Source of the DNA: Bernardetia sp. ABR2-2B
GTDB taxonomy: Bacteria; Bacteroidota; Bacteroidia; Cytophagales; Bernardetiaceae
NCBI RefSeq assembly: GCF_037126435.1
Contig: NZ_CP147020.1
Location: 1,907,293-1,971,292, forward strand
Length of the DNA stretch: 64,000 nt
Reading direction: 5' to 3'
Shown piece after piece: positions 1 to 20,127 of the stretch. Numbering within the stretch: position 1 is the stretch's first letter; the number at the start of each line of letters is the position of its first letter. Position numbers and translations under genes: made by a program. The notes beneath the pieces were generated by a model. That model worked only from the letters and a program-made list of their open reading frames with translations. It was not told the origin of the DNA and ran no database searches.

Positions 1-2
1 AA

Positions 3-698
3 AATAGAATAAAAGGAGCTTGGCAGCTAGAACATCGCCCCGAACAAATCCCTGCAAAGTTGTTATTTTTTAATCAGTTTGCACAGTCTTCAGTTATGAT
101 ACGAAAAGAATTTGCAGACTTAAAATATAGAGAAGAATATCCTCCAACAGAAGATTATGATTTGTGGGTACGTATTGCACACAAAACTAGAGTTACAAAT
201 CTTGCTGAATCTTTAGTAAAATATAGAATCCACGACCAAAATATTAGTCAAACACAAAAAGAAAAAGCAGATAGACACGTTTTGAAAATCTATAAAAATC
301 AGTTAGAAGAATTAGGAATTTATGCCAATCAAGATGAACTTATCCTACATAAAAAAATAGGAAATATGGATTTCAAACAAAATAATGAATCCTTTTTCGA
401 AAAAGTAAAAAACTGGTTAGAACTGCTCAACTCTAAAAATGAAAAAATAGAAGTTTATAATAAAATAGTTTTTAATAACCTTTTGGGAGAGTTTTGGGCA
501 GAACTTTTATCTAAAAATATAGAACTTTCTATTACAAAAAAAGCTTTTCAAAATTCGATTTTATCTTCTTATCTTAATTCTACCAAAAAAAATAACCTTT
601 CAAAATCTTTTAGACTTCGTTCTTTTCCTTTTAATTATACTATAAAACCTGCTTTAAATGTCATAAAAAAATTACAAGACTGGAAAAGAAAAAAATAG
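3..698 (+). CDS. Glycosyltransferase family 2, C-terminal part (5' end outside window)
   Basis: Reading frame is open from base 3. Translation contains '...EDYDLWVRIAHK...' as in GT2 C-terminal regions. Track start at 60 is a TTG. Confidence 0.45.
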   Translation, partial: NRIKGAWQLEHRPEQIPAKLLFFNQFAQSSVMIRKEFADLKYREEYPPTEDYDLWVRIAHKTRVTNLAESLVKYRIHDQNISQTQKEKADRHVLKIYKNQLEELGIYANQDELILHKKIGNMDFKQNNESFFEKVKNWLELLNSKNEKIEVYNKIVFNNLLGEFWAELLSKNIELSITKKAFQNSILSSYLNSTKKNNLSKSFRLRSFPFNYTIKPALNVIKKLQDWKRKK

Positions 699-800
699 GT
701 TATTTCTATTTCTGTAACTTCTGTTACCAAGTTTTTGAAAGCAAAACTCTAACTTTGTCATATTCAATTTAGTTTTATCACTCTCCAATTATATACAATT

Positions 801-1115
801 ATGTTAGATACAATCAAAAATTTGTTCAGCTCAAAACCTCCAACTGATTACAAAGCACTTTTGAAAGAAGGCGCAATTATTATCGATGTTCGTACGAAGG
901 GCGAATATGCAGGAGGACACATTCAAAACTCTAAAAATATTCCTTTAGATACATTAGCAAATCAGTTAGGACAATTTAAAGATAAAAACCAGATAATTAT
1001 TACTTGTTGTGCTTCTGGAATGCGTAGTGGAAGTGCAAAAAGTTTATTACAATCAAAAGGTTATACAAATGTTTATAATGGTGGTGGCTGGTCTGGTTTG
1101 AATAATAAAATTTAG
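801..1115 (+). CDS. Rhodanese-like domain protein (sulfurtransferase)
   Basis: Translation 'IIDVRTKGEYAGGHIQNSKNIP' with active-site Cys loop 'CCASGMRSG'; ~100-aa single rhodanese domain. Confidence 0.8.
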   Translation: MLDTIKNLFSSKPPTDYKALLKEGAIIIDVRTKGEYAGGHIQNSKNIPLDTLANQLGQFKDKNQIIITCCASGMRSGSAKSLLQSKGYTNVYNGGGWSGLNNKI

Positions 1116-1218
1116 TTTTTAAATCTTAAGCAATTGAGTAAAATTAAATACAACGAAACCCACGATTAAAATTGTGGGAAGACATTTTAAAATAGGAATA
1201 AGAATATAATTCCTGCTA

Positions 1219-1248
1219 TCCCATAACTAAAGTTATGGGTTTCGTTTT
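1219..1248 (+). terminator. Hairpin followed by T-tract (likely terminator of rhodanese gene)
   Basis: 'cccataact-aa-agttatggg' stem-loop followed by 'tttcgtttt'. A second hairpin 'ggacaagg-cgta-ccttgtcc' lies at 1301-1320. Confidence 0.4.
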
Positions 1249-1332
1249 AAAATCAAATTTTACCATTAACTTATAATTAAACCTGCTCAACTACTTATAA
1301 GGACAAGGCGTACCTTGTCCTTGCAACTCTTT

Positions 1333-2517
1333 TTAATTTTCTTTTATCAAAATTCCTCCCTCATCAGTTATTTCAATAATTCCTTCTGGAATATCTGTTT
1401 TGTTGAGATTTTGAATAATCGGAATTACCTTTTTATCTTTATCTATCGAAACTCCACCACGTCCACGTTGGATAATGGGCGTAATCTGACCAGAAATAAA
1501 TTTGCCTTCTTTATCAACTTTTAGATTTACGATTGGCGCAAGTCCACTTTCTCCACGCAAACTAAAACGGTCATACGTACAAAAATTCCCCAAACTATAT
1601 GCAACAAATCTATCTTTATAAACTTCCATAGCACGAGTAACATGAGGTCCATGTCCGAAAATAATATCTGCACCTGCATCAATCATGGCGTGAGAAAAAG
1701 CATATACATTTCCTCTATTTTCTCCATAGAAAGTTTCTGTTTTGCGTGTAATATGTTGCTTACTTCTACCTTCTGCACCTCCATGAAAAGAAACAATGAC
1801 TACGTCACAAGAATCATTTAATGTTTTTACAATAGCTTCGGCTGCCTTTATATTTCTAATATCCATTGTCCCAGAATTGGGTGCAAAGGCTGCAAAACCG
1901 TACTTTACTCCTTCTTTTTCGAACATTGTATAAGGACAAGAAACCAAACCTGCATATTCTATGTTAATACTTTCTAAGAATTTTTTACTGTTTTCTCTAC
2001 CTGAATTTCCAAAATCTCCCATATGGTTATTGGCAATACTGACTACATCGAAACCACCTTGTTTCAAAACATCTTCTACTAGCTTTTCTGGCATACGAAA
2101 CGCATAGCATTTACTAGGATCTGAACAGCGTTTTACCTGTCCTCCTTTATTCAAAACTACTCCCTCTAAATTTCCAAAAGTAAGGTCAGCACTTTTAAGG
2201 ATAGAATCTACCTCTGAAATCAAATCTTTACCTTCATTGGGTGGCAAATGGGCAGTAGAAGGAAAATTTGTTCCAAACATCATATCACCTACACCAATAA
2301 TTTGTAGTGTTTCTTTTTTGATAGAATTATCTTTTACAGACGAAAGCGTACTATCACTTAGTTTTAGTTTTAAAGAATCTGTTAAGTCATTAATAAGAGC
2401 TAAAGAATCGTTACTCTCGTTCAGAGTAGCTTTGTAATCTGTTTGGCTACAACTAAAATGAGAAATACTGATGGCAGGAAGAAGAAAAACGAGAAAAATA
2501 AGTTTTTGGATTTTCAT
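1333..2517 (-). CDS. CapA family metallophosphatase-like lipoprotein (poly-gamma-glutamate capsule synthesis family)
   Basis: Lipoprotein signal 'LLPAISISHFSCSQ'. Motifs 'GVGDMMFG', 'ANNHMGDFG', 'SFHGGAEG', 'GHGPHV' are typical of the CapA/PGA_cap family. Confidence 0.75.
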   Translation of the reverse strand: MKIQKLIFLVFLLPAISISHFSCSQTDYKATLNESNDSLALINDLTDSLKLKLSDSTLSSVKDNSIKKETLQIIGVGDMMFGTNFPSTAHLPPNEGKDLISEVDSILKSADLTFGNLEGVVLNKGGQVKRCSDPSKCYAFRMPEKLVEDVLKQGGFDVVSIANNHMGDFGNSGRENSKKFLESINIEYAGLVSCPYTMFEKEGVKYGFAAFAPNSGTMDIRNIKAAEAIVKTLNDSCDVVIVSFHGGAEGRSKQHITRKTETFYGENRGNVYAFSHAMIDAGADIIFGHGPHVTRAMEVYKDRFVAYSLGNFCTYDRFSLRGESGLAPIVNLKVDKEGKFISGQITPIIQRGRGGVSIDKDKKVIPIIQNLNKTDIPEGIIEITDEGGILIKEN

Positions 2518-2820
2518 AGAAAATAAGTTTTGTAATGATATATGTAGCTGACTAACAGCACACTATTTATAGTTTTTGTGTATAAAATTAATGATAAATA
2601 ATTGATTTAAAAAGATTAAATAAACGTTAATAATAGATTAATAAGAATTAAATTTGGTTATAAGTTGTAAAAGCAAATAAAATTTCGTATATTGACTTTG
2701 TTGGTAATTTAACTGACATAGTAATAAGTAGTCGCTTTAAGGTACATTTTTTAGATATTCATCTATCTATTGGCTGACAAAAACTAATTACTCATTTGTG
2801 CTTCAATTTTTTTAAAACAC

Positions 2821-2997
2821 TAATTCAATGATTTTTATTGCGACAGAAGACCAAAAAGGAAAAATAACTGCATTCTTTGCAAAAAATAAAAAACAACTTA
2901 AAGAGAAAGGGTTCAAATGGATTCGTAAATTTGACGACGAACATCGTGCTATCCTTTGGGTAAATGAAAGTTATTTACTAAATAAGAAAGAGTATTT
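2821..2997 (+). CDS. Small hypothetical protein (58 aa), not in the ORF track
   Basis: ATG...TAA ORF translating to 'MIFIATEDQKGKITAFFAKNKKQLKEKGFKWIRKFDDEHRAILWVNESYLLNKKEYLY'. Composition looks coding-like. Convergent with the HNH-ATPase gene. Confidence 0.25.
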
Positions 2998-3055
2998 GTA
3001 TTAAAATATTTTGGCGAAGCTAAATTTAGTAATTCGCCTTTTTGCTGGAAACTAA

Positions 3056-5170
3056 TTACTTCTTACTAGTAATTGTAAAATAGTCTTTTGCTATTATTTC
3101 TAAATATTCGTGATACGGACTTAGTTTGGGGAGCGCATTTTTTATTTTCAGATATAACTGCTCTGCATAAAGTTTGTCATTTTTTCCGATTGCTTGTGAT
3201 AACTCTGTTAGATAATCATCCATAATAGGCGATATTTCGGTTACGTTTCCTAACAAACGAGCCAATATTTCACTAATTGTCCAAGCCCATGGCATTCCTT
3301 CCATCAGTAGAGGATGAGCAATAATGCGCTCATCTTCCCATTCTAAGGAAATTATATTATTTGATGCCATCGATTGAATCATAAATGGACTTTGCGTTCC
3401 CACTATAAACTGCGTATTTGGAAACACTTCTGAAAGACGAGGAATGAGTGTGCGCTGCAAATTAGGACTTAAATGAACATCAATCTCATCAATCAAAACG
3501 ATTGCTTGTATGCTTTCTGGATATTCTATATCAAAAGGGTGTTGGATAGCTCGTACGCACAAATCCAAAATCCAACTAAAAACAGTCTGAAAACCATCTG
3601 ACATTGCTGAAATAAGGGATTCTCCAGAGGATGTTTGAAAGACAAAATCTCCATCTTTATTTAACCCCAAAAGTCCTTGTTCTAATTTTTCATCTTGTTC
3701 GTTTTCTGTAATATTTGAAGGAGGAGCAAGTAAACGATTTACTATTTTTCGAATGGGTTCGATATTGTTTTCTATGAAACTATAAGTGCTATGGTCATCC
3801 TCGCTTTTTAGAAATCCATTTTCTCCAAACAAAGAAGCAATAGGCGCAAAGGTACGATGCTGAAAATCATAGTTTCGAAGCCCTCTTTTTCCTGTACTAT
3901 ATCCCAAAACCATTAAATTTTCACGTATTATTTCAAAATAACGGCGATGACTTCCCGTGTTCATTACTCCATTTCTATCAATCTTAAATTTGATATTTAC
4001 TTCCTCTCCAAAACCTTGCAGACGAAGCACCAAATGCCCTACTTTTTTATCTCCATGAACTACATTTTCCCATCCATAATTAATAGGTGGTTTGGGAATA
4101 TTGGCTAATCCTAATGCAATAAGTTGAAGGATAGTCGATTTTCCTGTTCCATTTGTTCCGACAATGAGCGTGATATTTTCTTTCGTGTGAATATGAGGTA
4201 AATCAATAGAAAGTTTATCAAAACAACGGATATTTTTGATAAACATTGACTCCAAAATAAGCGTGTTATCTTCACTTGCTCGTTGTTCTTCTGGAAAATC
4301 AATATTTAAAAAAGGCGTAATTGTTTCGATAAAATGAACCTGTACTTGTTCCAAAACACGCATAACTTCAAAATCTTCACACTCATCAATAAAAAAGTAT
4401 TCAAAATTAAAAAGCATATTTTTCCCCATCATTGCATGTGGCGTTCTTTGTGCTGCCATTGCATTGAGTTCTGTCAAAATAGGTTCAAAATGCTCTTTTA
4501 ATAGTGAAACTGGTACTGGATAGCGAACAGTATTTTCTAAAAGGTTCTCAGCAGCTTGATAAAGTTTTTGGGTAATATCACGTATGATTCGATGACGAGC
4601 TACTGCCGACGAACCCATATTAATTTTATATGCCGTAATGGTAGAAGCTGCACGTAAATTTCTTTTGATAGGTTGCAAATTCCCCTGCCTATCAATAGCT
4701 ATATATTTTTCAGGAACATCTAATTCTGGATTGATAATCAGTGGATCTTCTGCCAAATGAATATCTGAATCTGCTCTCCAAAGCGTTCTGTCTTCAGGTG
4801 GTTTCTTGACTCGCTTGTGTTTATTCATTATCGGAAACTGACTATCCTCATAAAGTTTGCATTCTTCACAAACAGGTAAAAGATTTGTCCATTCGTAAAT
4901 AAGCCAATAATAAAGCTCTGGCGAACGGTAATGTGTCAAGAAAGCTGTCGATTCTTCAATAGAAATTCCTACTTCACAAAAGGCACATTTATTATAATGA
5001 ATTTCAAGAAGTTTGCCCAACACGTTTTCATGCATCAAAATATCCAAACGAGGGTATCCCACAAACTTACCTATCTCCAAAAGTGTCTGAATAACATTTT
5101 CAGTTTCTGGAGATTGTAAAATAGCTGGAATATCATTTGGATTTTTTCGTACTGAAATCATAGGGAGCAA
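3056..5170 (-). CDS. HNH endonuclease domain fused to ABC-type (AAA_15/21-like) ATPase; Septu (PtuB+PtuA)-like single-polypeptide defence candidate
   Basis: N-terminus: 'CAFCE...LTHYRSP...WTNLLPVCEEC' (CxxC...H...N...CxxC HNH, TIGR02646-like). Middle: Walker A 'GTNGTGKST'. C-terminal part: Walker B/D-loop 'VLIDEIDVHL' and 'TQSP' signature-like motif. Confidence 0.6.
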   Translation of the reverse strand: MLPMISVRKNPNDIPAILQSPETENVIQTLLEIGKFVGYPRLDILMHENVLGKLLEIHYNKCAFCEVGISIEESTAFLTHYRSPELYYWLIYEWTNLLPVCEECKLYEDSQFPIMNKHKRVKKPPEDRTLWRADSDIHLAEDPLIINPELDVPEKYIAIDRQGNLQPIKRNLRAASTITAYKINMGSSAVARHRIIRDITQKLYQAAENLLENTVRYPVPVSLLKEHFEPILTELNAMAAQRTPHAMMGKNMLFNFEYFFIDECEDFEVMRVLEQVQVHFIETITPFLNIDFPEEQRASEDNTLILESMFIKNIRCFDKLSIDLPHIHTKENITLIVGTNGTGKSTILQLIALGLANIPKPPINYGWENVVHGDKKVGHLVLRLQGFGEEVNIKFKIDRNGVMNTGSHRRYFEIIRENLMVLGYSTGKRGLRNYDFQHRTFAPIASLFGENGFLKSEDDHSTYSFIENNIEPIRKIVNRLLAPPSNITENEQDEKLEQGLLGLNKDGDFVFQTSSGESLISAMSDGFQTVFSWILDLCVRAIQHPFDIEYPESIQAIVLIDEIDVHLSPNLQRTLIPRLSEVFPNTQFIVGTQSPFMIQSMASNNIISLEWEDERIIAHPLLMEGMPWAWTISEILARLLGNVTEISPIMDDYLTELSQAIGKNDKLYAEQLYLKIKNALPKLSPYHEYLEIIAKDYFTITSKK

Positions 5171-5337
5171 TTACGAATTAAAAATTATGGATTACGAATG
5201 TAAATCACTGAATACAAATAATTTAAATTATTCAGCTTAATAGATTCTTTTTCCTAATTTAATTAACAACGAAGCATTAATAATTGAAAACTAATTATAC
5301 TAAAAAATAAATAACTATTAATGATTTAATTTTGGAT

Positions 5338-5679
5338 TTACTTTTCTGTATTTTGTTGGCTTTCTTTTAAATAAAGGGCTAACTTTTCACAAAGTTGATG
5401 GATTTCTTGTGCCATATAATCATCGTTTGTAGCACGGAGAAGCGTATCAGCCATTCCTCCCAAAATATTAATACTAAAACCTTTCATTTCTTCGACAGGC
5501 ATATCTTTTGTCCAAAGGTCAAGACGAAGACAGTTTTTTTCGTGTCCATCCCAAATAGCTAAAGCGATTGCTTTTGCTTCTTCAAGTTGTTTGCCACTAT
5601 CAGTTGCTTTCCAAAATATTTTTTCGGGTAGATTTTTATCATCTAATTCTATACTAAAACGGATTTCAGATTGTTTCAT
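5338..5679 (-). CDS. gldC: Gliding motility protein GldC
   Basis: 113-aa protein 'MKQSEIRFSIELDDKNLPEKIFWKATDSG' resembles GldC. Sits immediately downstream of a GldB-like lipoprotein gene, the conserved gldB-gldC arrangement. Confidence 0.55.
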   Translation of the reverse strand: MKQSEIRFSIELDDKNLPEKIFWKATDSGKQLEEAKAIALAIWDGHEKNCLRLDLWTKDMPVEEMKGFSINILGGMADTLLRATNDDYMAQEIHQLCEKLALYLKESQQNTEK

Positions 5680-5883
5680 TTTTGATGGGTTGATGTCGCT
5701 AGTGAAAACACAAGCAACGGCAAGGTTAAGTTTGCTGGTTAAAATTAAGAATACAAATTTACGAAAAAAAACAACCTTATTCGATAGTCAGATTATAGAA
5801 AGACAATTGAATGAGTTTTAGACAAAAAACCGAAATTCAAGTTTATTGAGTTTTGGTTTTTGTATGCTTTTTTAGAAATAGAA

Positions 5884-6984
5884 TTATTTCATTTTTGCTA
5901 ATTGCTGACTGCGTTCGGCTTCCATTGATTTAACCCACGCTTCATACTTTTCTGGACTCATTTCTCTAAAACCTAATTCTTCCATTTTAGCATTTACTTC
6001 TTTGAATTTTCGATAGTTTTCTTTCAACCAAGCATTTTCGTAGTTACCGTTTTTCTTCTGAAAAGCAACTCCAAAATGTCGTAATGTATTGCTTTTTGCT
6101 GCCAAACTAGGAATACAAGTGGGAAAATAAATTAAAGAAGTATCCAAACAAGCCAAACCAAATTTTGAATAACCGTACTGACTTTCATAAGCTGTTTCTA
6201 GCATTTTCAAACAAAAAGCAATATCTTCTTTTGGACTTAACTCTTTCATATAAATTCCTTTTCTGATACTTTCTGCTGAAATATCCATGGAAGAAATCAT
6301 CCAACTATCTGATGAAAAATTGCCGTTGGTAAGTTCTATATTTACCCATTTATTTTGCTCGTCTAAATGCTTGATGTACATGTGATTGGGTCCGAGAGCT
6401 AGATAAGCATTTGCTTTTATTTCATTTGCTAAAATCTTATATAAAATAGGCATCGAACGGCATTGTCCTTCATGTGTCTTTAAGAGTTTAGAAACAAACA
6501 TACTTCTATGGTCTTTTTCTCCATAAAAATCTTCAAAGTCATACGTATAAGGCTTATAATTATTCATTTTGTGAGGTTTTGTAAAAAACTCAAAAAGAGC
6601 ATAATTTCCTGCTGTTTTATAAGTAGAAATCCCTTTTGCTGCCACAAACTTGTTTAGGTCTTTTGCTATTTTATCTATCTGATTACAAAATTCTGTATAA
6701 TCTAACTCTCCTCCAGAATATGCCCATTCTACCAAAAAAACAGCTCGTTTGAAGTCAAGAGGGATTTTATCCAAAAGCATTTGATTAATTTCTTGAAAAG
6801 CAAGATTGTAATATTTGTTATCTGTATGAACAACAGAAGAATCAAATTGAAATTTAGAAATAGTTTTTTCTATTTTAGTTTCTATTGTTTTAATAGATTC
6901 AGTTTCTGTTTTCTTTTCTTCAATATTTTGAGAGCAGGAAAAGCAGAACAAAAACAGTATAATATAAGAATAATTAATTTTCAT
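5884..6984 (-). CDS. gldB: Gliding motility lipoprotein GldB
   Basis: Lipoprotein signal 'FLFCFSCSQN'; ~360 aa; located directly upstream of gldC. Assignment rests on size and synteny, not a strong motif. Confidence 0.5.
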   Translation of the reverse strand: MKINYSYIILFLFCFSCSQNIEEKKTETESIKTIETKIEKTISKFQFDSSVVHTDNKYYNLAFQEINQMLLDKIPLDFKRAVFLVEWAYSGGELDYTEFCNQIDKIAKDLNKFVAAKGISTYKTAGNYALFEFFTKPHKMNNYKPYTYDFEDFYGEKDHRSMFVSKLLKTHEGQCRSMPILYKILANEIKANAYLALGPNHMYIKHLDEQNKWVNIELTNGNFSSDSWMISSMDISAESIRKGIYMKELSPKEDIAFCLKMLETAYESQYGYSKFGLACLDTSLIYFPTCIPSLAAKSNTLRHFGVAFQKKNGNYENAWLKENYRKFKEVNAKMEELGFREMSPEKYEAWVKSMEAERSQQLAKMK

Positions 6985-7411
6985 ATTTCACGAATACTTT
7001 TACATTTACACATAATTTTTTGACCTTTCTTTCTTTTCGCAATCTTAAAGTATATTTATCTTTTGAGCTTGATGTAAATCTTAATCCTGTATAATACTTA
7101 TCATTTATTTTAGTAGTTACGATTACAGAATCATTCTTTATTACTTCTAAATATGTTCCTTTACTGAGTCTTTTATTGTATGTAGTATAGTCGTACATAG
7201 ATATAGAATATACTTTTCCACTATCTAAATCAATATCCCATTCTGCAAAAGGCTTGAAATAAAAATCGTATATTTCTTTACTATCATACACAACTCTTCT
7301 AGAAGGGAGAGAAACACTCCTTAAGTCATTAATATACTCTTTTTTACACTGTTTGTTTATCGAACAACCAAATATAAATAGAGAAATATATAATAAAAAT
7401 AAAGGCTTCAT
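6974..7411 (-). CDS. Small lipoprotein, paralogue of 7417-7881 (candidate orphan immunity protein)
   Basis: Signal 'LYISLFIFGCS'. C-terminus '...YTLRLRKERKVKKLCVNVKVFVKYEN' parallels '...YLFELRQDSKSKPLCYNIIVFIKDK' of the neighbouring gene. Confidence 0.5.
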   Translation of the reverse strand: MKPLFLLYISLFIFGCSINKQCKKEYINDLRSVSLPSRRVVYDSKEIYDFYFKPFAEWDIDLDSGKVYSISMYDYTTYNKRLSKGTYLEVIKNDSVIVTTKINDKYYTGLRFTSSSKDKYTLRLRKERKVKKLCVNVKVFVKYEN

Positions 7412-7416
7412 GATAG

Positions 7417-7881
7417 TTATTTATCTTTGATAAACACAATAATATTGTAACATAAAGGTTTTGATTTAGAATCTTGTCTTAGTTCAAATAGATAATTTCC
7501 ACTCTGTTTAGGAGTAATCGTAATTCCCCAAAAATATCTATTATCTATTTTGCTACTGCTTATAAATTCATTATTGAGCTTTAAATTTAGAAATACCTTG
7601 TATTTAATAAAGGAATCAGTAGTATAATCACCATATATTCTAGCTTCATAAGCTTCTCCTTCCTTTAAGTTGAGAATAATATCTTCGCTAGGTTTAGCAT
7701 GGTAACTGTACTTAGGTGTGAAACCAACTATTCCTTTTCTAGATGTTAAGGTGTATAAAATTTTTCTTTTTTTATACTTAGTAGCACAATCTGGGTGACA
7801 AGCTATTTGACAAAGAGATAATAGTAAAAAAAAGAATATTATTTTCGTTTTTTGTGAGTATGATCTGACTCTGGATTCCAT
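7417..7881 (-). CDS. Small lipoprotein, paralogue of 6974-7411
   Basis: Signal 'IIFFFLLLSLCQIAC'; shares C-terminal block with neighbour; tandem arrangement. Confidence 0.5.
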   Translation of the reverse strand: MESRVRSYSQKTKIIFFFLLLSLCQIACHPDCATKYKKRKILYTLTSRKGIVGFTPKYSYHAKPSEDIILNLKEGEAYEARIYGDYTTDSFIKYKVFLNLKLNNEFISSSKIDNRYFWGITITPKQSGNYLFELRQDSKSKPLCYNIIVFIKDK

Positions 7882-8089
7882 TTATTTTTTGTTTAAGCCG
7901 TTGTCGGTGTCCCCACCGACGACTTTTAACTTTCAAAATAGGTGTAAATTCGGATAAAATTAGCGAGGTGCAAAAATTGTCAGAGAACCTTATTGCTTTA
8001 CTAATAGTTTCTTTTTCTTGTGTTTTTGTCTGACAAGAAAACAAGAAAAAAAACGTAACAAGTATTAATTTAACTCTTATAAAAATCAT
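7882..8089 (-). pseudogene. Possible remnant of a third small lipoprotein gene (signal peptide plus ~40 aa, then runs out of frame into next gene)
   Basis: ORF 7778-8089 begins 'MIFIRVKLILVTFFFLFSCQTKTQEK' (lipoprotein signal) but overlaps 7417-7881 by ~100 nt in another frame. A GC-rich hairpin 'gtcggtgtccccaccgac' lies at ~7905-7925. Confidence 0.2.
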
Positions 8090-8100
8090 TAATTTTTAAT

Positions 8101-8586
8101 TTAATCAAATACTGGAAATGATATAACATCTATATTATTTTGGGATTGAATAATTCTAGTAGCATATACTAAAGTATATGGATAAGAGCTATTTTTTTTC
8201 TTCAAATTTTCTATATCCCACGATGAAGTAAGATGTATAGTTTCATTTGAAAACCGACATATATCTGCAATTTCACCTTTTTCTTTGAAATAAACATAAT
8301 TAATAGTATCACTATAACTCCAAATGGAAGTAAAAAATCGTCCATTCTCATCTTCAAAACTTTCTAACAAAAATAAAGTATCACTCTTTAAGAAAGCTTT
8401 AGATTCTAATTCTTTAAAAAGACTTAGCCTAACTTTGTGAAAATAATTATAATTTATTTTTAATATTTTTTGTTCAATTTTTTTATTTTTTATATTATAT
8501 GATAATCTATTTAGATAATTAAAATCTTTTTTACAAGAAAAAAGGTAGAAAAATAGCACTATAATAATTCTTATTTTTTGTTTCAT
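8101..8586 (-). CDS. Lipoprotein, hypothetical; candidate immunity protein for upstream toxin
   Basis: Signal 'VLFFYLFSCKKD'. Start lies 2 nt downstream of the toxin gene's stop, on the same strand. Confidence 0.45.
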   Translation of the reverse strand: MKQKIRIIIVLFFYLFSCKKDFNYLNRLSYNIKNKKIEQKILKINYNYFHKVRLSLFKELESKAFLKSDTLFLLESFEDENGRFFTSIWSYSDTINYVYFKEKGEIADICRFSNETIHLTSSWDIENLKKKNSSYPYTLVYATRIIQSQNNIDVISFPVFD

Positions 8587-8587
8587 C

Positions 8588-9721
8588 TCAGTAAGTATAT
8601 CTATTTTTAGGTCTTCCTATTGAGTTAAAATTTGTACTTCCATCATTTCTATAATACAAAGATTGACCATTGTCTAATATACGAGTATCTTCATTATTTG
8701 TGCCATCTGCTCCTACTGAATAATATTGTCTAAGAGGTAAACCTTGTTCTTTTCTTATCATGTTTTCAACGTGAGTGGCATATATTTCAGCATACGGAAT
8801 ACTTTTATTTTGACCGTTAGCAGTAAGAACTCTTGTCCAAGTATTTCTATTTATAGTTCCGTTCTTAATATCTTCTACATGAGCTAACTCATGACCTAGC
8901 ATGACATAATTTTTAGTTTCCGTAATCCCAAATTCATCTGCACCTGTAAAAACATCTTCTGAATTCCACTTGACATAAGTGCCATTCTTCATATCTGCAG
9001 CACTACCTCCACTAGTTGATATAATATTTATAATTTCAGAAATAGATGTAAGCCCTTCTACTAAAGAACGTCCCCTATTTCCTTCTCTAAGTTTGCCAAG
9101 CGATGCAGTTAGTTCAAGAACAAAACTGTCATTACCTGAGTATGTTTCTCCTGTTTCTGAACTTATAAAAGCAAAATCTCCATTAGCATTTTTATCATAA
9201 AACCATCTCTCATTTTTTCCAGTTGTAGAACCATCCTCTAGAGTTATAGTAGAAGTTGTAGTAACGACAATACTATCTCCATTTGGATCAATATTTCGTA
9301 TCGGATTGTTACCTACAAAGTTATAAGGGTTTAAATCTGGATATTTATGTGCTAACCTATCTATACTCAAGAAACGAGCAAAGTTATCAGTATCAAGAAA
9401 TGTCTCTTTTATTAGATTATCTTTTTCATCAAAGGTACGCACTCTACCCAAATACAAGTCCAATTCTATTTTTGCAACGTTTCCATTTTTAATATCAAGG
9501 CTATGCTTTCCATTTCTCTCAGCTTCACTCATCAAAACAAAAGAGCTATCTCCAAACATCGCATAAGGACTTTGGTTTTTAGTTTCTGTGTTTCGAAACT
9601 GCGTGTTTTCTTTTCCAAATTCAAGATTAGAAGTAGTTTTATTATTGTTTTCTTTGCTAGAACATCCATAGAGAAATGTTGCACCTACTAGCAAAGCAAA
9701 AACGAATATTTTGTAGTTCAT
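8588..9721 (-). CDS. Polymorphic-toxin-like lipoprotein: RHS-core terminal motif plus HExxH zinc-metallopeptidase C-terminal domain
   Basis: Lipoprotein signal 'LLVGATFLYGCSS'. 'ARFLSIDRLAHKYPDLNPYNFVGNNPIRNIDPNGD' matches the RHS-core end consensus (RFLSxDP...NxYxYxxNNPxxxxDPxG). C-terminal ~230 aa contain 'MLGHELAHVED'. Confidence 0.6.
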   Translation of the reverse strand: MNYKIFVFALLVGATFLYGCSSKENNNKTTSNLEFGKENTQFRNTETKNQSPYAMFGDSSFVLMSEAERNGKHSLDIKNGNVAKIELDLYLGRVRTFDEKDNLIKETFLDTDNFARFLSIDRLAHKYPDLNPYNFVGNNPIRNIDPNGDSIVVTTTSTITLEDGSTTGKNERWFYDKNANGDFAFISSETGETYSGNDSFVLELTASLGKLREGNRGRSLVEGLTSISEIINIISTSGGSAADMKNGTYVKWNSEDVFTGADEFGITETKNYVMLGHELAHVEDIKNGTINRNTWTRVLTANGQNKSIPYAEIYATHVENMIRKEQGLPLRQYYSVGADGTNNEDTRILDNGQSLYYRNDGSTNFNSIGRPKNRYTY

Positions 9722-9786
9722 AAAGATATGATTTTTTGTAGACTCAAATATAGCTAGATTATTGGAAATGAGAAAATTATGATTTA

Positions 9787-12513
9787 TTACTCCTCCATTT
9801 CCCTCAAAATCCCCACCGTTTCGACACTCACTCTACACACTTTTCTCAAAAGCTCAATTAGCCTCTCTTTTTGATTATCAAAAGAATAAGTGGTAAAAAC
9901 TCCTTCTTCAACAGCTTTTTTGACAGTTTTATCTCTCAATTTTCGTTCGCTATGGTGTTCCAAAACCCACTCTAAAGCAGAGCGCACACCCAAACGATAA
10001 TGCCATGCTTCTTCTGGAATATTTTTCAGATAGGTTGTTTCATCAATCCAAACTAAACTGCGAACTCTGTCAGCTTTTAGAATGGCTTTTTTCTTAGATT
10101 TTTTTTCGGATGGATAACTGTCCACCTCTACTTTTTCAGACGAACGGCTGTTCGTCTCTATCTTTTCTTCTCGCTCTAAAGGATAAATAATAGCCTCTTC
10201 ATAATTGAGATGCAGATTTAATAATTTTTCTCCCCACGTTGCCCACTTCCAAAAATCTTCATACATCGGAATTCGTGGTAGTTCGGTATGGAGTATTTTT
10301 TCGTACTTTTTACGGTATTCTGGTGAGTGCAAAACGGCATAGATATAAGCAAAAATGGTATCTTTTGTCAAGGTTCTTGCCTCCACTTGATTGTCTTTCA
10401 TAGACTGCAAACTCTTCTTTAATTCCTTAAAGTTTTTTGCCTTAAATTTTACAGCCTTAGAAGAATAATGATGACGAAACTGCTCTAATGCCCAATCCGT
10501 AATATTTTCTTTAAACTCATTTGTTTCTTCATCAAAAAAGTATTTGGCAAATGTGTGCGTTGCTCTTGCACCGTAACCATTATCGGGAATAAAATTAGTA
10601 GCGTGAACTACCAATGGAACTTGTTTATGAACTGTAACACAAATAGTCGGATTTGGAGTTTGCTCTTTTTGAAGTGGAAAAAAACGAAATTGCTGATAGG
10701 GACGATGTGTAATTACCTCATCTACATATACAAACTGCTTTACAAAAGGGCGATAAGAAGCTTCCCTAACCTTGAAAGAATCATAATTTGTTTCTAAATT
10801 TCTTTTGAGGTTTTGAATAAGCTCTGCGTTCCATTTTATTTTGGCTTCCTTTATTTCTGACTTTACTCCTAAAAAACTTTGTAACGATTCTTTTTGGTCA
10901 GAATTATGCCACTTTTTGCGTTCTTCTTCATAAATCTGACTAAAATAACTTGCTTTTTTTTCTAAATTATCTTTATCAAAATCATACATCCATTCGTCTC
11001 TAGCCGTCAGAAGTGCAGGAGAAGCCCATTTGAAAAGTGCTGTTTCTTCATCTGCAAACTGTGCTGTTTGGGTAGCCTTGTGAGACAGAGGCATAAAACC
11101 TAAAAAATCATCTTCTGGAAGTGCAATCCAATAATTTACAGCTTGACTTACTTTTTTGAACGATAGATTTTGAAATTGTGTGCGTGAAAGAGCTTCTCCA
11201 AAATTCTTTAATGATTTGAAGTTTTTGGTAGGTTTCCAATAATAAACAGGGCATTGAGAACGCAAATGAGCCAAGCGAAAACCATTTGAATAATTATTTT
11301 TATTCTTTCTAACCAAAAAAAGCAATGCAGACTCATTTTCTTTTCCACTAAAAGCCTTTGTATTGTCTTTTTCATTTTTTGATAATTCTGATTTTTCTTC
11401 AATTATATTGGTTTGGCTTTCTTTTTCTACATTTTTATACTCCAAATCCATTACATAAATGCTATCAAATTCGGCTTGTACTCTCTTTCTAAAACCTTCA
11501 TAGGTAGGCGCATGTAAAACAACAGAGGGAAGCCAAACAGCAATAACGCCTTTTTCGGTAAGCCTATCAGTAGCCCAACGTACAAAACGCAAAGGCACAG
11601 GAGAAAAGGCATTTTTTTCATAAATAGGTGTATAAGCTGCCATTACACGGTTATCGATGGCAGCAAAATCAACCTCTTGACTTGTTTTGCTACTTCCTTT
11701 ATCTTTATTATTTTCACTAAAAATAAATTGATTTTGTTGGCTAGTTTTGAAAGAATTTCCGACAATGATATGATAACGAGCATCAATAGAACGGTAAAAC
11801 TCTTGTGCTTCACTTTCCTGTGAGCCAAAAAGTAATGTTTGTTTCGGCACATCCACAAAGTAGGCTGCGTTTGCCCAAAAGATAGGCTGTGAATTATTAG
11901 AGTTGTTATTTAGACTAACTTTCCATAAATAATATGACCAAATAGAAAGTGTACAGGTATAAGACTGACCGACAGAAGGCTGAATATCTTGAAAAAAAGT
12001 ACCTTGATAAAGTGAAGGAGCTTCAAGATTGGCGATAGATTGCTGAATAAAACTTGCAAACTCTAAAGGAGCAACACCTACTTCAAATTTGCGTTGCCAA
12101 TGGACAATAATTTGTTCTTTTTTAGTCTTAGAAAGACTAGTAGAAATTTCTTTTAAAGACAGGCAGTATTTTTTCCATTGTTCTAAAAATCCATTCTTAA
12201 AAAAAACAGAAAAAGCATCTAGTTTTTGAAAGACAGTATCTTTTTTTATAAAAAAGTTATTTTCTAATGGTGTAGAGCTTTCCGTAAAAAATAGACTTTC
12301 TACTAAGGGAAATACAATTTGATGTGATAGAATAGCCGTTTTGAGTAAATTCTCATCAGGCAGACTATGAAACTGAGAAGCAAAAGCACCCAAAGAACGA
12401 TAAGCAGAAGTCTGACGAATTTTATTTTTATCAAATTCGTCTTGCAAAGATGCTATCAAATTATCAATAGCAAAAAAGGTAGGGATTTCTATATTTTTAT
12501 TCTCAAACTTCAT
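9787..12513 (-). CDS. Large (908 aa) protein with type ISP/IIG-like C-terminal block; MTase catalytic motif not evident
   Basis: C-terminal 'IFAYIYAVLHSPEYRKKYEKILHTELPRIPMYEDF' recalls the conserved C-terminus of Type ISP/IIG MTase-REase fusions. 'VIAVWLPSVVLHAPTYEGFRKRV' is a motif-V-like block. Where NPPY/F would sit there is 'IIVGNSF'; no helicase or FxGxG seen. Confidence 0.55.
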   Translation of the reverse strand: MKFENKNIEIPTFFAIDNLIASLQDEFDKNKIRQTSAYRSLGAFASQFHSLPDENLLKTAILSHQIVFPLVESLFFTESSTPLENNFFIKKDTVFQKLDAFSVFFKNGFLEQWKKYCLSLKEISTSLSKTKKEQIIVHWQRKFEVGVAPLEFASFIQQSIANLEAPSLYQGTFFQDIQPSVGQSYTCTLSIWSYYLWKVSLNNNSNNSQPIFWANAAYFVDVPKQTLLFGSQESEAQEFYRSIDARYHIIVGNSFKTSQQNQFIFSENNKDKGSSKTSQEVDFAAIDNRVMAAYTPIYEKNAFSPVPLRFVRWATDRLTEKGVIAVWLPSVVLHAPTYEGFRKRVQAEFDSIYVMDLEYKNVEKESQTNIIEEKSELSKNEKDNTKAFSGKENESALLFLVRKNKNNYSNGFRLAHLRSQCPVYYWKPTKNFKSLKNFGEALSRTQFQNLSFKKVSQAVNYWIALPEDDFLGFMPLSHKATQTAQFADEETALFKWASPALLTARDEWMYDFDKDNLEKKASYFSQIYEEERKKWHNSDQKESLQSFLGVKSEIKEAKIKWNAELIQNLKRNLETNYDSFKVREASYRPFVKQFVYVDEVITHRPYQQFRFFPLQKEQTPNPTICVTVHKQVPLVVHATNFIPDNGYGARATHTFAKYFFDEETNEFKENITDWALEQFRHHYSSKAVKFKAKNFKELKKSLQSMKDNQVEARTLTKDTIFAYIYAVLHSPEYRKKYEKILHTELPRIPMYEDFWKWATWGEKLLNLHLNYEEAIIYPLEREEKIETNSRSSEKVEVDSYPSEKKSKKKAILKADRVRSLVWIDETTYLKNIPEEAWHYRLGVRSALEWVLEHHSERKLRDKTVKKAVEEGVFTTYSFDNQKERLIELLRKVCRVSVETVGILREMEE

Positions 12514-12634
12514 TAAAAACTACTCCTTTAATTCTGTCTCATTTTGGTTTTAAAATCTAAGAACAAAACTACAAAAGATTATTCTATTTTTAATGAGTTT
12601 TATTGTTTGTTTGTCGAAGAGCGTAGAGTTTTTA

Positions 12635-13450
12635 TCAAAACAAACTACCTTGAGTAATTGGGTTAGGAGGAAAAACACCAATGATTACAAAAGGATTGGA
12701 AGCTCTATAATGATGAATTTTAGTTGTTCCCAAAAACAAATAAATATCTTTTTTCTTAGCAAACGAATCAAAATATTTCTTCTCAACATCTTTACAAGCC
12801 TTTAGTTTATCTCCATCATGTCTTTTTAGACAGTTCCAGTATAGTTGTCCTATCTCCCAATCCTCAATCATCATTTTTGTGGTTTTCCCATTACTATCTT
12901 CCCATTGATAAGAAAACTTGTAAGGCAGTTTCTTTACTACTTTAAAATTGTCATTTTTTACACTTCCAAATAAATTCATTTGCTTCATTGCTTCTAATTT
13001 TCTTGAATCCCATTCATCTTCTACTTTTTCGTAAATAAACTTATGAATTTTTGTGGGCTTAAAAACAGCTAAAGATGTAGATACAGCCCTATCTTTAGCT
13101 TCTCCAATTAGAATAGACAAATCTGTGTAAACGTTTTTTAATACTATTTCTCTACGTTTTTTCCACGTATTACCATCTGCTAGGATTTCTCCTACTTTTT
13201 TTATTTCTGTATCTTCAGAATGAGGTCTATAACTTTCTGGACGTGGGTCACTTGTATTTTTGACTAAATCTATTTCTATCCATTCATATTTTTTGTATTG
13301 GTCTTTGTATGATTTTTTTCTAAACTGAATAGGATAAATACGTATCCATGTTCCGTCTTCTCTGAAACCTGCTGTACATACTAATTCGTCATATTTTACA
13401 GAAATAGTAGGATAGGTTTTTACTGTTATTAATACTTTTTCAATAGCCAT
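12635..13450 (-). CDS. Hypothetical protein (271 aa), middle gene of three-gene operon
   Basis: Start ATG lies 2 nt after the stop of the upstream gene (translational coupling). No motif recognised. Confidence 0.55.
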   Translation of the reverse strand: MAIEKVLITVKTYPTISVKYDELVCTAGFREDGTWIRIYPIQFRKKSYKDQYKKYEWIEIDLVKNTSDPRPESYRPHSEDTEIKKVGEILADGNTWKKRREIVLKNVYTDLSILIGEAKDRAVSTSLAVFKPTKIHKFIYEKVEDEWDSRKLEAMKQMNLFGSVKNDNFKVVKKLPYKFSYQWEDSNGKTTKMMIEDWEIGQLYWNCLKRHDGDKLKACKDVEKKYFDSFAKKKDIYLFLGTTKIHHYRASNPFVIIGVFPPNPITQGSLF

Positions 13451-13452
13451 AT

Positions 13453-14394
13453 TTATAGATTTTGATGAGGAATGTCCCAGTTTTCTTGATTTATTATATT
13501 CTTCAGTACAACTCCTCTATGGCACATACAAACCTCTTTTTCAAAACAAGTAAGTGCAATTCTAGAATATTCATTTATGTAATCGTTTATCAGAAGTAAA
13601 TACTCTTTATTTTCTTTTAAGGTTGTTTTTTCATACTCTTTAAATAAAATATCATAATCTTTCTGATTGTTCAATTTTTGTCTTTTAGAAGATACAATTC
13701 CTAATTGTGGAATATGTAAATATTCGATTCCTACAGCTTCACAAGCACTTTTAAGACGGTTTTTTGAAAATCCATATTTCATACTCAATGGGTTTTTTCT
13801 AACATCACAAAGTAGCTTTACATCATTAATAATTAATTTATTGAGATATTTTTCTAAACTAACACCTTCATAACCAATTGTAAACACTTTTTGCTCTTTA
13901 TAATTTCTCTTTTGTTCATTTACTTTTTTTAGCTCTTCATCAGATAATAATCTTTCAGCAATCTGACTTTTTGTAGCAAAAAAGGGGTACTTAATATAAG
14001 TATGTTTTACTAATTTGTTTAGGGGCAAAAATTCTATTTCTTTTTTTATATCTAATATAAACTGCTTATCTTCTTTATTCAATTTATAAACCATTGAATC
14101 ATTCTCTATCAACTTCCAAGTAGATTGGTTATTTTTTGTTTCTTTTTCTATCAATCCATATTTCGAAAGCGTATTTAAATCTTGATTTGCTTGAAAAGAA
14201 TAGCAACCATATTTGTAAGGTACAAAATCATAAGATTTTTTAGTTTGTAAACGTGTTACAAGAAATAAAACTTTTTGTAGATAAGTATTTGATAATTCTC
14301 CTTCAAAAATATCTAAAATAGATAGAAGCAATTTACGACGATAATACATAATGAAAACAAATTTTGAAAAACAGTCAGCTAATTTAATTAGCAA
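13453..14394 (-). CDS. Fusion protein: N-terminal Panacea (DUF4065)-like domain plus C-terminal DUF488 domain
   Basis: C-terminal half 'FTIGYEGVSLEKYL...LLCDVRKNPLSMKYGFSKNRLKSACEAVGIEYLHIPQLG...IALTCFEKEVCMCHRGVV' matches DUF488 conserved blocks. N-terminal half 'KVLFLVTRLQ...YDFVPYKYGCYSFQANQDLNTLSKYGLI' resembles Panacea/SocA-type domains. Confidence 0.6.
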   Translation of the reverse strand: MLIKLADCFSKFVFIMYYRRKLLLSILDIFEGELSNTYLQKVLFLVTRLQTKKSYDFVPYKYGCYSFQANQDLNTLSKYGLIEKETKNNQSTWKLIENDSMVYKLNKEDKQFILDIKKEIEFLPLNKLVKHTYIKYPFFATKSQIAERLLSDEELKKVNEQKRNYKEQKVFTIGYEGVSLEKYLNKLIINDVKLLCDVRKNPLSMKYGFSKNRLKSACEAVGIEYLHIPQLGIVSSKRQKLNNQKDYDILFKEYEKTTLKENKEYLLLINDYINEYSRIALTCFEKEVCMCHRGVVLKNIINQENWDIPHQNL

Positions 14395-14546
14395 TTTATT
14401 AAAATTTTCTAAAGATAACTAATATTATTTCAATTTTGACAAAGCGAAGAAAACCAAACACAATTTATACAGTTTTGCAAGAATATTTTTTATTCTCTAA
14501 TTTTAAGCAAGAATAATCTAAATTTAAACTAATTCAAGCAAAACAC

Positions 14547-15890: not shown

Positions 15891-15991
15891 CGTGAAGTTA
15901 TCAGTCAAAGCAAAACAAAAATCCATTATTTACTCAAAGAATAAATAATGGATTTTTTTATAACTAATAATTAAACGTTAATCACTAAAAA

Positions 15992-18964: not shown

Positions 18965-19332
18965 ATTAATTTATCGAATGTATTTGAAGAATGAGGAATC
19001 TCGTTTTTGAGAAAAAATGGAATTTTAGTTTAAAGATAATGAAAAAGATAATCATTTTACTCAAAAAATAATTTAGGGCATGTCATAAATCAACTCTAAA
19101 AGATAAGAAGCGAGAAGTCAAATTTTTGGATGTGTAGAAGAGCTTAGTGATTGAAAGAATGCTTTGGAAGTGGAACTATTCTATAAAAAAATCATTGCTT
19201 TGATTTTTGATAAAAATTGGAATAGGTTTAATATTGAGTTAGAGATAAAAAAGTGCGAAGGTTTGATTGTATTAAGTTGAGTTTGAAAACTCTAATCTCC
19301 AAGGAAATCAAATACTGCTTTTGAAGTATTTT

Positions 19333-20046
19333 TTACATATCAATATTAGCAATTCGAATCAGTTTTTCTTTATTCAAAATACGGATTTCTTTGCCTTTTA
19401 GTTCTATTATTTTATCTGTATTAAGTTCCGAAAGATAACGAATAGCACTTTCTGTGGCAGTTCCGACAAGGTTCGCTATTTCTTCTCTACTCAAACGAAT
19501 ATCAATAACTTCTACATTTTCTTTATTTGGGTAACGATTATGTAAAAGCAAAAGCACTTCTGCAAGGCGTTCTCTAACTGATTTTTGCATCCAGTTAGTA
19601 AGGCGTTGTTCCATATCCTGTGTGTCTTTTGCCATTACTTGCATCATACGACGAGGGAAGTCTTTGTTATCATCTATTATGTCTAAAAATGTAGAATTGG
19701 GTACAAAGCAAACAATAGCCTCATCTAAAGCCTCTGCTGAAACGTTGTAAGGCTGCTGACTAAGTAAAGAATTATAACCTAAAATTTCTCCATCAGAAGC
19801 TATTTTGACAATCTGTTCCTTTCCATCTACTCCTAACTTAGTTAGTTTTACTTTTCCTTCATATATACAATGAATACCAATAGCACGAGAACCTTCATAG
19901 AATAAATTTTGCCCTCGTTTATAAAAATTGCACCCTTTATTAGCAGACATATTTGCGACTTCGTCTTCTGACAAATCACAAAAAACAGAGGTCGCTCGTT
20001 TTGGACAGGTTTCACATTTTGGAAACTCAACTTTTCTCTTTTTCAT
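19333..20046 (-). CDS. Crp/Fnr-family transcriptional regulator (FNR-like, N-terminal Cys cluster)
   Basis: N-terminal 'CETCPKRATSVFC' cysteine cluster, cNMP-binding fold, C-terminal HTH 'REEIANLVGTATESAIRYLSEL'. Adjacent to the cbb3 oxidase cluster. Confidence 0.8.
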   Translation of the reverse strand: MKKRKVEFPKCETCPKRATSVFCDLSEDEVANMSANKGCNFYKRGQNLFYEGSRAIGIHCIYEGKVKLTKLGVDGKEQIVKIASDGEILGYNSLLSQQPYNVSAEALDEAIVCFVPNSTFLDIIDDNKDFPRRMMQVMAKDTQDMEQRLTNWMQKSVRERLAEVLLLLHNRYPNKENVEVIDIRLSREEIANLVGTATESAIRYLSELNTDKIIELKGKEIRILNKEKLIRIANIDM

Positions 20047-20127
20047 ATATAGTATTAGCTTTTTATTTTGTAAATATCACTTATTGTACTATCATTAAAA
20101 CTAAAAAATGTTTTCTAAAAAATCAAG

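Follow-up and report, generated by a model that had tools for sequence, protein, structure and literature searches.

A single-chain PtuB'-PtuA protein of the Septu family, co-inherited with gldC in the Bernardetiaceae

Septu is among the more common anti-phage systems, and to our knowledge all of its solved structures consist of a separate PtuA scaffold that recruits PtuB at a ratio of 2:1 or 6:2. An ATP-binding cassette (ABC) ATPase and a nuclease also occur together in one chain, as in OLD and GajA, where the nuclease is a C-terminal TOPRIM domain. Here we describe a gene in a 64,000-nucleotide stretch of the Bernardetia sp. ABR2-2B genome (RefSeq assembly GCF_037126435.1, contig NZ_CP147020.1, positions 1,907,293 to 1,971,292; hereafter the window) that joins both Septu components in a single polypeptide. 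This PtuB'-PtuA protein, in which PtuB' is the fused PtuB copy, belongs to a Bernardetiaceae-specific clade that is co-inherited with gldC, and every segment of it is under purifying selection.

For the E. coli Septu complex, PtuA/PtuB structures have been deposited as PDB 8EE4, 8EE7, and 8EEA (Li et al. 2024, as referred to in PMC11980606). In solved complexes, the C-terminal helical region of PtuA binds the C-terminal domain (CTD) of PtuB (PMC12819146, PMC12673091). The residues on which PtuB depends are known from several systems. In PtuB of retron Ec78, E56 and H57 together with a Cys4 zinc finger are needed for activity or defense (PMC13376987, PMC12673091, PMC12819146); E56 is a predicted catalytic residue, whose mutants lose nicking (PMC13376987), and mutating the zinc-finger cysteines abolishes defense (PMC13376987, PMC12673091). 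In PtuB of the Septu system EcB88, H75 and N91 are essential (PMC13096335). In T4 endonuclease VII, D40 and N62 are Mg2+ ligands, and the D40N, D40A, and N62D variants are inactive yet still bind DNA (PMC6083498).

Two Septu halves in one reading frame

The gene is an uninterrupted open reading frame (ORF) on the reverse strand of the window. An earlier note, made from the sequence alone, had proposed a single ORF with a set of HNH and ATPase motifs; the ORF and all quoted motifs could be mapped, and the PADLOC matches lie far beyond chance. Since all homologues begin at 'MISVRK', the true start is probably the ATG at 5161, which gives 701 amino acids. The features below are all on the reverse strand.

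3056-5170: whole ORF, fused PtuB'-PtuA protein, 704 amino acids from a TTG at 5170, with the stop codon at 3056-3058
4361-5161: PtuB-like module, residues 4-270, with N-terminal helices, zinc-finger HNH core, and helical CTD (from PADLOC, AlphaFold2 [AF2], and Foldseek)
4832-4999: HNH core, residues 58-113, with zinc ligands C62, C65, C101, and C104, H80 at the general-base position, N96, and T79 and K105
4259-4318: inter-domain linker, residues ~285-304, of which 293-300 are predicted to be disordered
3311-4258: PtuA-type ABC ATPase head, residues 305-620 (from PADLOC, Pfam, PDB sequence matches, and Foldseek)
3059-3310: C-terminal helical region of the PtuA part, residues 621-704 (from alignments to 8ee4 and PDLC00304, and AF2 helices)
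4973-4987: motif CAFCE, residues 62-66
4919-4936: motif THYRSP, residues 79-84
4877-4897: motif YEWTNLL, residues 92-98
4856-4870: motif CEEC-K, residues 101-105
4133-4159: Walker A motif GTNGTGKST, residues 338-346
3587-3604: ATPase signature motif MSDGFQ
3479-3499: Walker B motif VLIDEID, residues 558-564, including D561 and E562
3383-3400: GTQSPF, residues 591-596, the H-loop with Gln593

The proposed fusion of a PtuB-type, TIGR02646-like HNH domain with a PtuA-type ABC ATPase is supported by profiles, by sequence matches to solved structures, and by folds. At the N terminus, the PADLOC PtuB model PDLC00316 (301 positions) aligns to residues 4-266 with E=1e-35 and 285 of its 301 positions covered. 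The earlier note had recognized the PtuB likeness of this part, but its estimate of about 110 residues was too short, as the module spans about 270 residues including the helical CTD. TIGR02646 itself reaches 23.5 bits (E=4.8e-5) over residues 49-105 only, under its curated cut-off of 52.15 bits. At the C terminus, PADLOC PtuA models recover a complete PtuA over residues 301-696 (E=4.6e-56 to 1e-48), and Pfam AAA_21, AAA_23, and AAA_15 match the ATPase half above cut-off. The profile comparison that the note had suggested thus held for PtuA, PtuB, AAA_15, and AAA_21, but not for HNH, since the Pfam scan of the fused protein gave neither an HNH nor a TOPRIM match. The NCBIfam models of the retron proteins remain below their cut-offs (PtuA NF041760, 117.4 against 500 bits; PtuB NF041761, 36.4 against 150 bits).

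The same picture emerges from solved structures. With the ATPase half as query, the PDB sequences matched at E=3e-19 to 3e-13 are PtuA proteins, from E. coli Septu and from the retrons Ec78, Ec83, and I-A; the N-terminal half alone matched PtuB chains only weakly (E about 0.2). The C-terminal helical region aligns to residues 273-446 of E. coli Septu PtuA (8ee4) and to PDLC00304 up to position 416 of 444. An AF2 model of residues 4-300 has a predicted local distance difference test score (pLDDT) of 90 and a predicted template modeling score (pTM) of 0.84; its significant matches in a PDB fold search are nine PtuB chains only, including 9nnb_J, 9n69_F, 9u9y_H, and Septu 8eea_G, with probability 1.0 over 243-293 columns and TMt of 0.54-0.68. 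For the full-length model (pLDDT 83, pTM 0.53), the best 50 PDB fold matches in Foldseek are all PtuA chains, and the pLDDT falls below 50 at residues 293-300, as it does at the end of the N-terminal model (model residues 290-297). Profile matches and predicted folds together make the architecture secure: the protein joins a complete PtuB, with HNH core and helical CTD, to a complete PtuA in which the C-terminal helical region is preserved.

Both halves are thus homologous to E. coli Septu and EcB88 (PMC13096335), with 8eea_G (PtuB) and 8eea_C/D (PtuA) among the best fold matches. The Bernardetia protein differs in being one polypeptide in the order B→A with a ratio presumably forced to 1:1, whereas Septu is encoded by two genes, ptuA→ptuB, and assembles at 6:2; it also differs in its replaced metal-ligand positions, its Gln H-loop, and its stable chromosomal partner gldC. 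The PtuA/PtuB effectors of retrons Ec78/Eco7, Ec83, and type I-A are the best PDB matches for both halves (9nnb, 9n69, 9kjx, and 9e8z; PMC12819146, PMC12673091, PMC12475279) and share the Cys4 zinc finger of PtuB, but the fused protein lacks the E of their E56-H57 pair. Unlike at retrons, no reverse transcriptase is found among the neighbors and no Rfam match in positions 1-9000. OLD, Gabija GajA, and PARIS AriA-AriB follow the same logic of ABC ATPase plus nuclease, while here the nuclease-type domain is an N-terminal HNH; besides the lack of a TOPRIM match in Pfam, the best 25 PADLOC matches include no GajA or OLD model, and the leading ones are PtuA throughout, with neither GajA nor AriA among them. 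A housekeeping ATPase of the RecF, RecN, or SMC type is not supported, as all profile scores lie below cut-off and the matches are confined to the Walker A region (SMC_N, 34.4 bits against 40; RecF TIGR00611, 24.3 against 172; Rad50 models, 15-20 against 700-1000).

Co-inheritance with gldC and selection

According to the earlier note, the gene stands alone between housekeeping genes. We found instead that it forms a conserved pair with gldC in four deep Bernardetiaceae lineages. The features concerned are the following.

5338-5679 (reverse strand): gldC, 113 amino acids, directly upstream; TIGR03515 GldC, 143.8 bits against a cut-off of 102
5162-5337 (reverse strand): AT-rich spacer of 176 bp between gldC and the fused gene, without the Bacteroidota -7 motif TANNTTTG on the coding strand
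2828-3004 (forward strand): orf58, a small convergent gene of 58 amino acids, conserved across Bernardetia

Six Bernardetia loci (85-93% identity) share the order glycosyltransferase, rhodanese, PGA_cap, orf58, fused gene, gldC, and synteny between the window and its Bernardetia relatives runs from position 1 to about 5720, ending just upstream of gldC. At three further loci among those we fetched (numbered with L), gldC again lies directly upstream on the same strand, with a 93-bp gap in L017, a 4-bp overlap in L084, and a 5-bp gap in L090, and all other neighbors differ. The pair is the only adjacency conserved across these four lineages, between which the fused proteins are 31-37% and the GldC proteins 50-55% identical. 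All eight gldC loci attributable to Bernardetiaceae carry the fused gene; conversely, among 80 reference-genome GldC loci (L004-L083), a PtuA/PtuB-like ORF is present only at six Bernardetiaceae loci and at none of the other 74. Hugenholtzia-type copies (44% identity) are not linked to gldC.

We tentatively regard gldC and the fused gene as probably co-transcribed. The -7 motif is missing from the coding strand of the 176-bp spacer, and the nearest one lies upstream of gldC at 5754-5761. Across the whole window we counted 132 copies of this motif, a number reached by none of 100 shuffles (103.6 ± 9.6 expected), which fits a Bacteroidota genome; a σ70 promoter scan is uninformative for Bacteroidota. 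Another observation was that the spacers between the two genes in L005 (10343-10399) and L017 (6864-6956) hold clear inverted repeats, such as AAACCCTAAGGGTTT...AAACCCTTTAGGGTTT in L005, which could be terminator- or attenuator-like hairpins between both genes; such repeats are missing from L084 and L090, in which the two genes abut.

Nothing points to a recent insertion, which is ruled out by the absence of flanking direct or inverted repeats of note, of any tRNA in the window, of a G+C anomaly, and of an empty site, the fused gene being present in every Bernardetia locus fetched. Its G+C content (0.33-0.38) is like that of neighboring genes, and only the intergenic spacers are AT-rich. These flanks had been put at 0.5 and 0.17 kb, but the true non-coding gaps are 51 bp on the 3' side (3005-3055) and 176 bp toward gldC (5162-5337), and an Rfam search at E≤1 over positions 1-9000 found nothing relevant, such as a noncoding RNA or a retron, in them. 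The earlier note had also suggested comparing relatives that lack the gene, of which our sample contains none, and had held that conserved synteny of housekeeping repair proteins would speak against it; synteny is indeed conserved, and this objection applies in part, although the partner is gldC and not a repair gene.

In five Bernardetia orthologues, the ratio of nonsynonymous to synonymous substitution rates (dN/dS) amounts to 0.083 over the gene as a whole and to 0.075 over the ATPase at a dS of about 0.8, and it stays between 0.05 and 0.10 in every segment, like that of GldC, PGA_cap, and rhodanese. These values exclude that the gene is a pseudogene or that it represents a Septu system in decay, and we likewise give practically no credence to a chance ORF; the frame is intact in the window and in five of the six Bernardetia loci, although the catalytic positions are degenerate (below) and the copy in L007 (10410-12511) is spread over three reading frames. 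Both L007 and L010 are long-read metagenome-assembled genomes (MAGs) from the same project (MFD isolate names, Mb-scale contigs), and frameshifts also occur in the GldC and PGA_cap genes of L001/L010. As the sister MAG L010 has frameshifts in these neighboring genes too, those of L007 and L001/L010 are most likely sequencing errors and not pseudogenization.

Given the stable linkage, we considered whether the protein is an exapted Septu derivative that has lost its nuclease function and taken on a cellular, non-defense role with GldC, as an ATP-dependent switch binding nucleic acid or protein. The exclusive adjacency in four lineages, with genes overlapping or 5 bp apart in two of them, the contrast of 8/8 against 0/74 loci, the housekeeping-like dN/dS, and the clade-wide changes at catalytic positions of both domains would all suit such a role, as would the neighborhood: a split relative, L092, adjoins a type I restriction-modification system, whereas the conserved neighbors of the fused gene are not defense genes. 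We nevertheless consider it unlikely. The Hugenholtzia-type copies lie away from gldC, operon linkage may reflect only the use of the gldC promoter, and sister fused proteins occur in Acidobacteria and on plasmids, as is typical of mobile defense genes. Furthermore, we know of no GldC function that suggests the need for such a partner.

On the other side of the fused gene, the earlier note had pointed to a 58-residue convergent ORF at 2821-2997. It is a genuine gene, orf58, although its actual coordinates are 2828-3004: its product is 93-100% identical across Bernardetia, with a dN/dS of 0.035 at dS 0.7-1.5, and its homologues, annotated as 'hypothetical', are found only in Bernardetia and Bernardetiaceae. 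A role as antitoxin or partner of the fused protein is ruled out, since in MAG GCA_020832465 the homologue lies on another contig than the fused gene and it is missing beside the fused gene in L017, L084, L090, and L002. It is thus a real small gene outside the fused-gene system.

Fused and split relatives

How widespread the fusion is can be read from an exhaustive phmmer search with residues 4-300, which returned 1970 proteins at E≤1e-3; a word-indexed homologue search with the N-terminal part alone gave two fragments only. We analyzed 162 sequences, namely the best phmmer matches and the fused homologues of a separate search. Among them, 54 relatives are fused (at least 590 amino acids, always with the PtuB-like part N-terminal) and 106 stand alone (<330 amino acids), such that about one third of the representatives in this PtuB subfamily are fused. 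The survey of domain order proposed in the earlier note gave a uniform answer for each type: the PtuB part comes first in all fused relatives, and split relatives are ordered ptuA→ptuB with overlapping stop and start codons (L092, L093, and about 55 metagenome loci). The fusion therefore has the reverse order of the usual operon, which rules out an origin by simple stop-codon read-through of ptuA-ptuB.

While the fusion that the note had presented as a departure from a separate PtuB gene is real, it is also common, and it is not a new kind of system: because three PADLOC PtuA models of 726-773 positions align from residue 4, fused proteins are already contained in PADLOC 'PtuA' profiles. Septu rules of the PADLOC/DefenseFinder type require two separate genes in a ptuA→ptuB operon. 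As a single ORF with its PtuB part N-terminal, the Bernardetia gene departs from this arrangement, and tools requiring two genes would probably miss single-gene forms as Septu. In databases, examples are annotated as 'AAA family ATPase' (NCBI) or, in part, 'TIGR02646 family' (JGI), and no description of a fused PtuB-PtuA was found in the limited collection of literature searched.

A hidden Markov model survey of all fetched loci revealed three arrangements. The first is the canonical split pair. In the second, a fused B'-A protein (718-831 amino acids) is followed by a separate PtuB (L087/88, L099, L102, L103, L107, L151, and Bacillus toyonensis pBtP18). In the third, the fused protein has no separate PtuB; this holds for the Bernardetiaceae clade and for L089, L094, and L101. 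When the ATPase domains are placed in a neighbor-joining (NJ) tree, 197 of 200 bootstraps support a monophyletic Bernardetiaceae clade, which lies within an all-fused clade of 23 sequences. The proteins accompanied by a PtuB belong to a different clade, with the proviso that deep nodes are unreliable. A single clade of all fused proteins is recovered in 0 of 200 bootstraps, but as distances above 1.2 make these deep nodes unreliable, the fusions may still have a single origin. Distant fused relatives occur on Bacillus, Roseovarius, and Rhizobium plasmids and in Acidobacteria; since relatives sit on plasmids and in several phyla, the wider family moves between hosts.

The second arrangement raises the question of whether the Bernardetia protein is only the ATPase and sensor half of a system whose intact PtuB is encoded elsewhere in the genome, a reading that may overlap with the others discussed here. 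Seven loci provide the precedent, in which the same B'→A fusion, mostly with a degenerate catalytic triad, is followed immediately by an intact PtuB (in pBtP18, for example, WP_200204564.1/WP_200204562.1). These proteins, however, have a His H-loop and fall into the other ATPase clade, and two of their loci have defense-type neighbors (dcm in the case of pBtP18 and a patatin-like gene in that of L087). Moreover, the 64-kb window contains no other PtuA/PtuB gene, no PtuB-like ORF lies in the flanks of any Bernardetiaceae locus, and those of the nearest stand-alone relatives whose source is named all belong outside the Bernardetiaceae. An unlinked PtuB is thus improbable.

Two further arrangements deserve mention. 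In L087/L088 (7001-11882), the distant fused homologue P0020 (720 amino acids, PtuB'-PtuA) is encoded by the first gene of an overlapping three-gene operon, ahead of an intact separate PtuB (273 amino acids) and a 634-residue patatin-like protein. This operon may represent a form of Septu that has a phospholipase as its second effector. In seven metagenome loci (L095, L127, L142, L155, L156, L170, and L173), PtuA-like ATPases of 767-1938 amino acids carry other large N-terminal extensions, with the PtuA part C-terminal; six of the seven are followed by a separate PtuB, none being detected beside L142. N-terminal fusion to PtuA thus seems to be a general theme.

Catalytic positions and proposed mode of action

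The HNH motif was called complete in the earlier note. The protein indeed keeps C62, C65, C101, C104, H80, and N96, with the same spacing of 16 residues between H80 and N96 as between H75 and N91 of EcB88 PtuB, and it shares the layout CxxC...(D)H...R...CxxC-(N) and the structural zinc of T4 endonuclease VII and other DHHRN-type ββα-Me nucleases (PMC6083498), to which no direct sequence homology was detected beyond the motif. However, two of the three catalytic-triad positions are replaced, as in nearly all fused relatives: Thr79 and Lys105 stand at the positions equivalent to the metal ligands D40 and N62. Stand-alone relatives (n=106) mostly have D/E at position 79 (99), H at 80 (101), and N at 105 (99), with the full triad in 94, whereas in fused proteins (n=55) these numbers drop to 17, 39, and 16, and the full triad remains in only 3 (Fisher's exact p≈1e-26, a descriptive value given that the sequences are not independent). 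No fused-only lineage has a full triad. Where a separate PtuB accompanies the fused protein (seven loci), this PtuB reads E-H-N in every case, in contrast to a fused domain that is usually degenerate. Within the clade of the Bernardetia protein (14 sequences), position 79 is always T, A, or G, and the residues found at position 105 are K, Y, F, V, A, and T. The conservation of the catalytic His and Asn, on which the earlier note had staked its proposal, is therefore mixed: H80 (13 of 14) and N96 are kept, but the Asn at 105 is absent across the clade.

By contrast with the metal-ligand positions, E66, R82, E93, W94, and N96 hardly vary in either fused or free proteins, with E66, R82, and E93 invariant in both, and no segment of the gene is under stronger constraint in Bernardetia than the HNH core (dN/dS 0.047). 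Because the core is constrained and these residues are kept while the metal-ligand positions are replaced, the alignments suggest that the PtuB' domain is functional, though probably not as a canonical Mg2+-dependent HNH nuclease.

A different possibility is that the protein is a fully competent single-chain Septu, in which PtuA regulates an active HNH in cis through ATP and the enzyme nicks DNA or cleaves tRNA upon phage infection. Both domains are complete and under purifying selection, H80, N96, and the Cys4 zinc finger are present with the spacing of EcB88, and the invariant E66, R82, and E93 could supply metal ligands. Yet T79 and K105 replace a D/E and an N with 93% conservation among free PtuB proteins, T4 endonuclease VII depends on the corresponding positions as metal ligands (PMC6083498), the E56 mutants of Ec78 lose nicking (PMC13376987), position 105 varies within the clade, and the fused domains are degenerate in 52 of 55 cases. 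We therefore regard full nuclease competence as doubtful, if still conceivable.

Turning to the ATPase, the Walker A, Walker B (D561, E562), and signature motifs are all intact. The 'TQSP' cited in the earlier note as a motif of PtuA/OLD/GajA-type ATPases belongs to an ATPase of the PtuA class, but it proves to be the H-loop, with Gln in place of a near-universal His: Gln is present in 17 of 17 clade members, whereas 124 of 126 other PtuA-like proteins have His. Degenerate ABC sites typically deviate in this loop. In nucleotide-binding domain 2 of MRP1, on the other hand, a His→Gln change kept wild-type-like function (PMC7756269), and by this analogy we treat the Gln H-loop as a clade-defining change of uncertain kinetic effect and not as evidence of inactivation.

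On balance, we lean toward the view that the protein is an ATP-gated module that binds its target or cleaves it weakly, with a conflict-type role, encoded by a stable chromosomal gene. In this model, PtuB' would be tethered by a short flexible linker to the N terminus of PtuA, and as the Walker A, Walker B, and signature motifs are intact, a head-to-head dimer bridged by ATP, or a higher oligomer, would be expected, as in the PtuA complexes solved so far. Hydrolysis is probably altered by the H-loop Gln but not abolished. One tethered PtuB' per ATPase would force a 1:1 ratio, as opposed to the 2:1 or 6:2 of solved complexes. Because the zinc finger, His80, Asn96, E66, R82, and E93 are kept and both metal-ligand positions are lost, PtuB' may bind nucleic acid, with cleavage that is weak or follows a non-canonical route, and its main task would be sensing or clamping under the control of ATP. 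In our view, the biological role is most likely still conflict-related, Septu-like and of an abortive-infection type, even though in Bernardetiaceae the gene is a stably inherited chromosomal one, probably expressed with gldC, and not a mobile island gene.

Several observations weigh against this interpretation. With H80 kept throughout most of the clade, the nuclease could still be active, and the strong constraint on the HNH core might reflect an active nuclease using other ligands, such as E66 or E93. In four clade members, three of the four zinc ligands are lost. The inter-domain geometry of the AF2 model is unreliable (pTM 0.53), which makes the 1:1 assembly purely inferential. Finally, the lack of an empty site, of a mobile-element signature, and of a neighboring defense gene conserved in relatives fits a housekeeping or exapted role equally well.

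A related and more tentative proposal is that the PtuB' domain of fused proteins is a pseudo-nuclease, in other words a copy of the effector that is built in for regulation or for the sensing of nucleic acids. The Bernardetiaceae protein would then be a derivative that has lost any separate nuclease and gained a Gln H-loop, inherited vertically as a gldC-coupled core gene and serving no longer in classical Septu cleavage but as a nuclease-free defense sensor or in a domesticated cellular function.

Elsewhere in the window, a genome-specific side extends over about 5720-14400; 12 ORFs tested in 5884-22299 have no homologue in the fetched loci. Its nearer part encodes a transglutaminase-like protein of 366 amino acids (5884-6984), a 161-residue ORF, two paralogous putative lipoproteins of ~150 amino acids (6974-7411 and 7417-7881, 29% identical), and a 377-residue protein (8588-9721) with a Peptidase_M91 'effector' domain after an RHS-like 'NPIRNIDPNGD' motif. 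This part looks conflict-related and could be a polymorphic-toxin/immunity cassette. A 908-residue ORF (9787-12513, reverse strand) contains the C-terminal specificity domain of Type ISP enzymes (PF18135, E=2e-81). Its match to PADLOC models of Type IIG/ISP restriction-methyltransferases is confined to their C-terminal third (positions 1047-1635 of 1646), and the Type ISP enzyme may thus be truncated or split. Lastly, a UvrD-family helicase of 1134 amino acids (55809-59213, reverse strand) matches PADLOC GajB models at E down to 3e-27 and may simply be housekeeping.

Taken together, an N-terminal PtuB copy that is fused to PtuA and has almost always lost the canonical triad characterizes a large, apparently undescribed fraction of the family. 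As far as we found, what is undescribed is the near-universal degeneracy of the fused copy, its coexistence at several loci with an intact PtuB, and a Bernardetiaceae clade with a Gln H-loop and long-term linkage to gldC. If the fused copy is a pseudo-nuclease, it would constitute a new regulatory layer in Septu and a natural tool to separate nucleic-acid recognition from cleavage. In the Bernardetiaceae, a defense-derived gene has been kept beside a gliding gene across deep divergence, which makes this clade a candidate for the domestication of an immune module.

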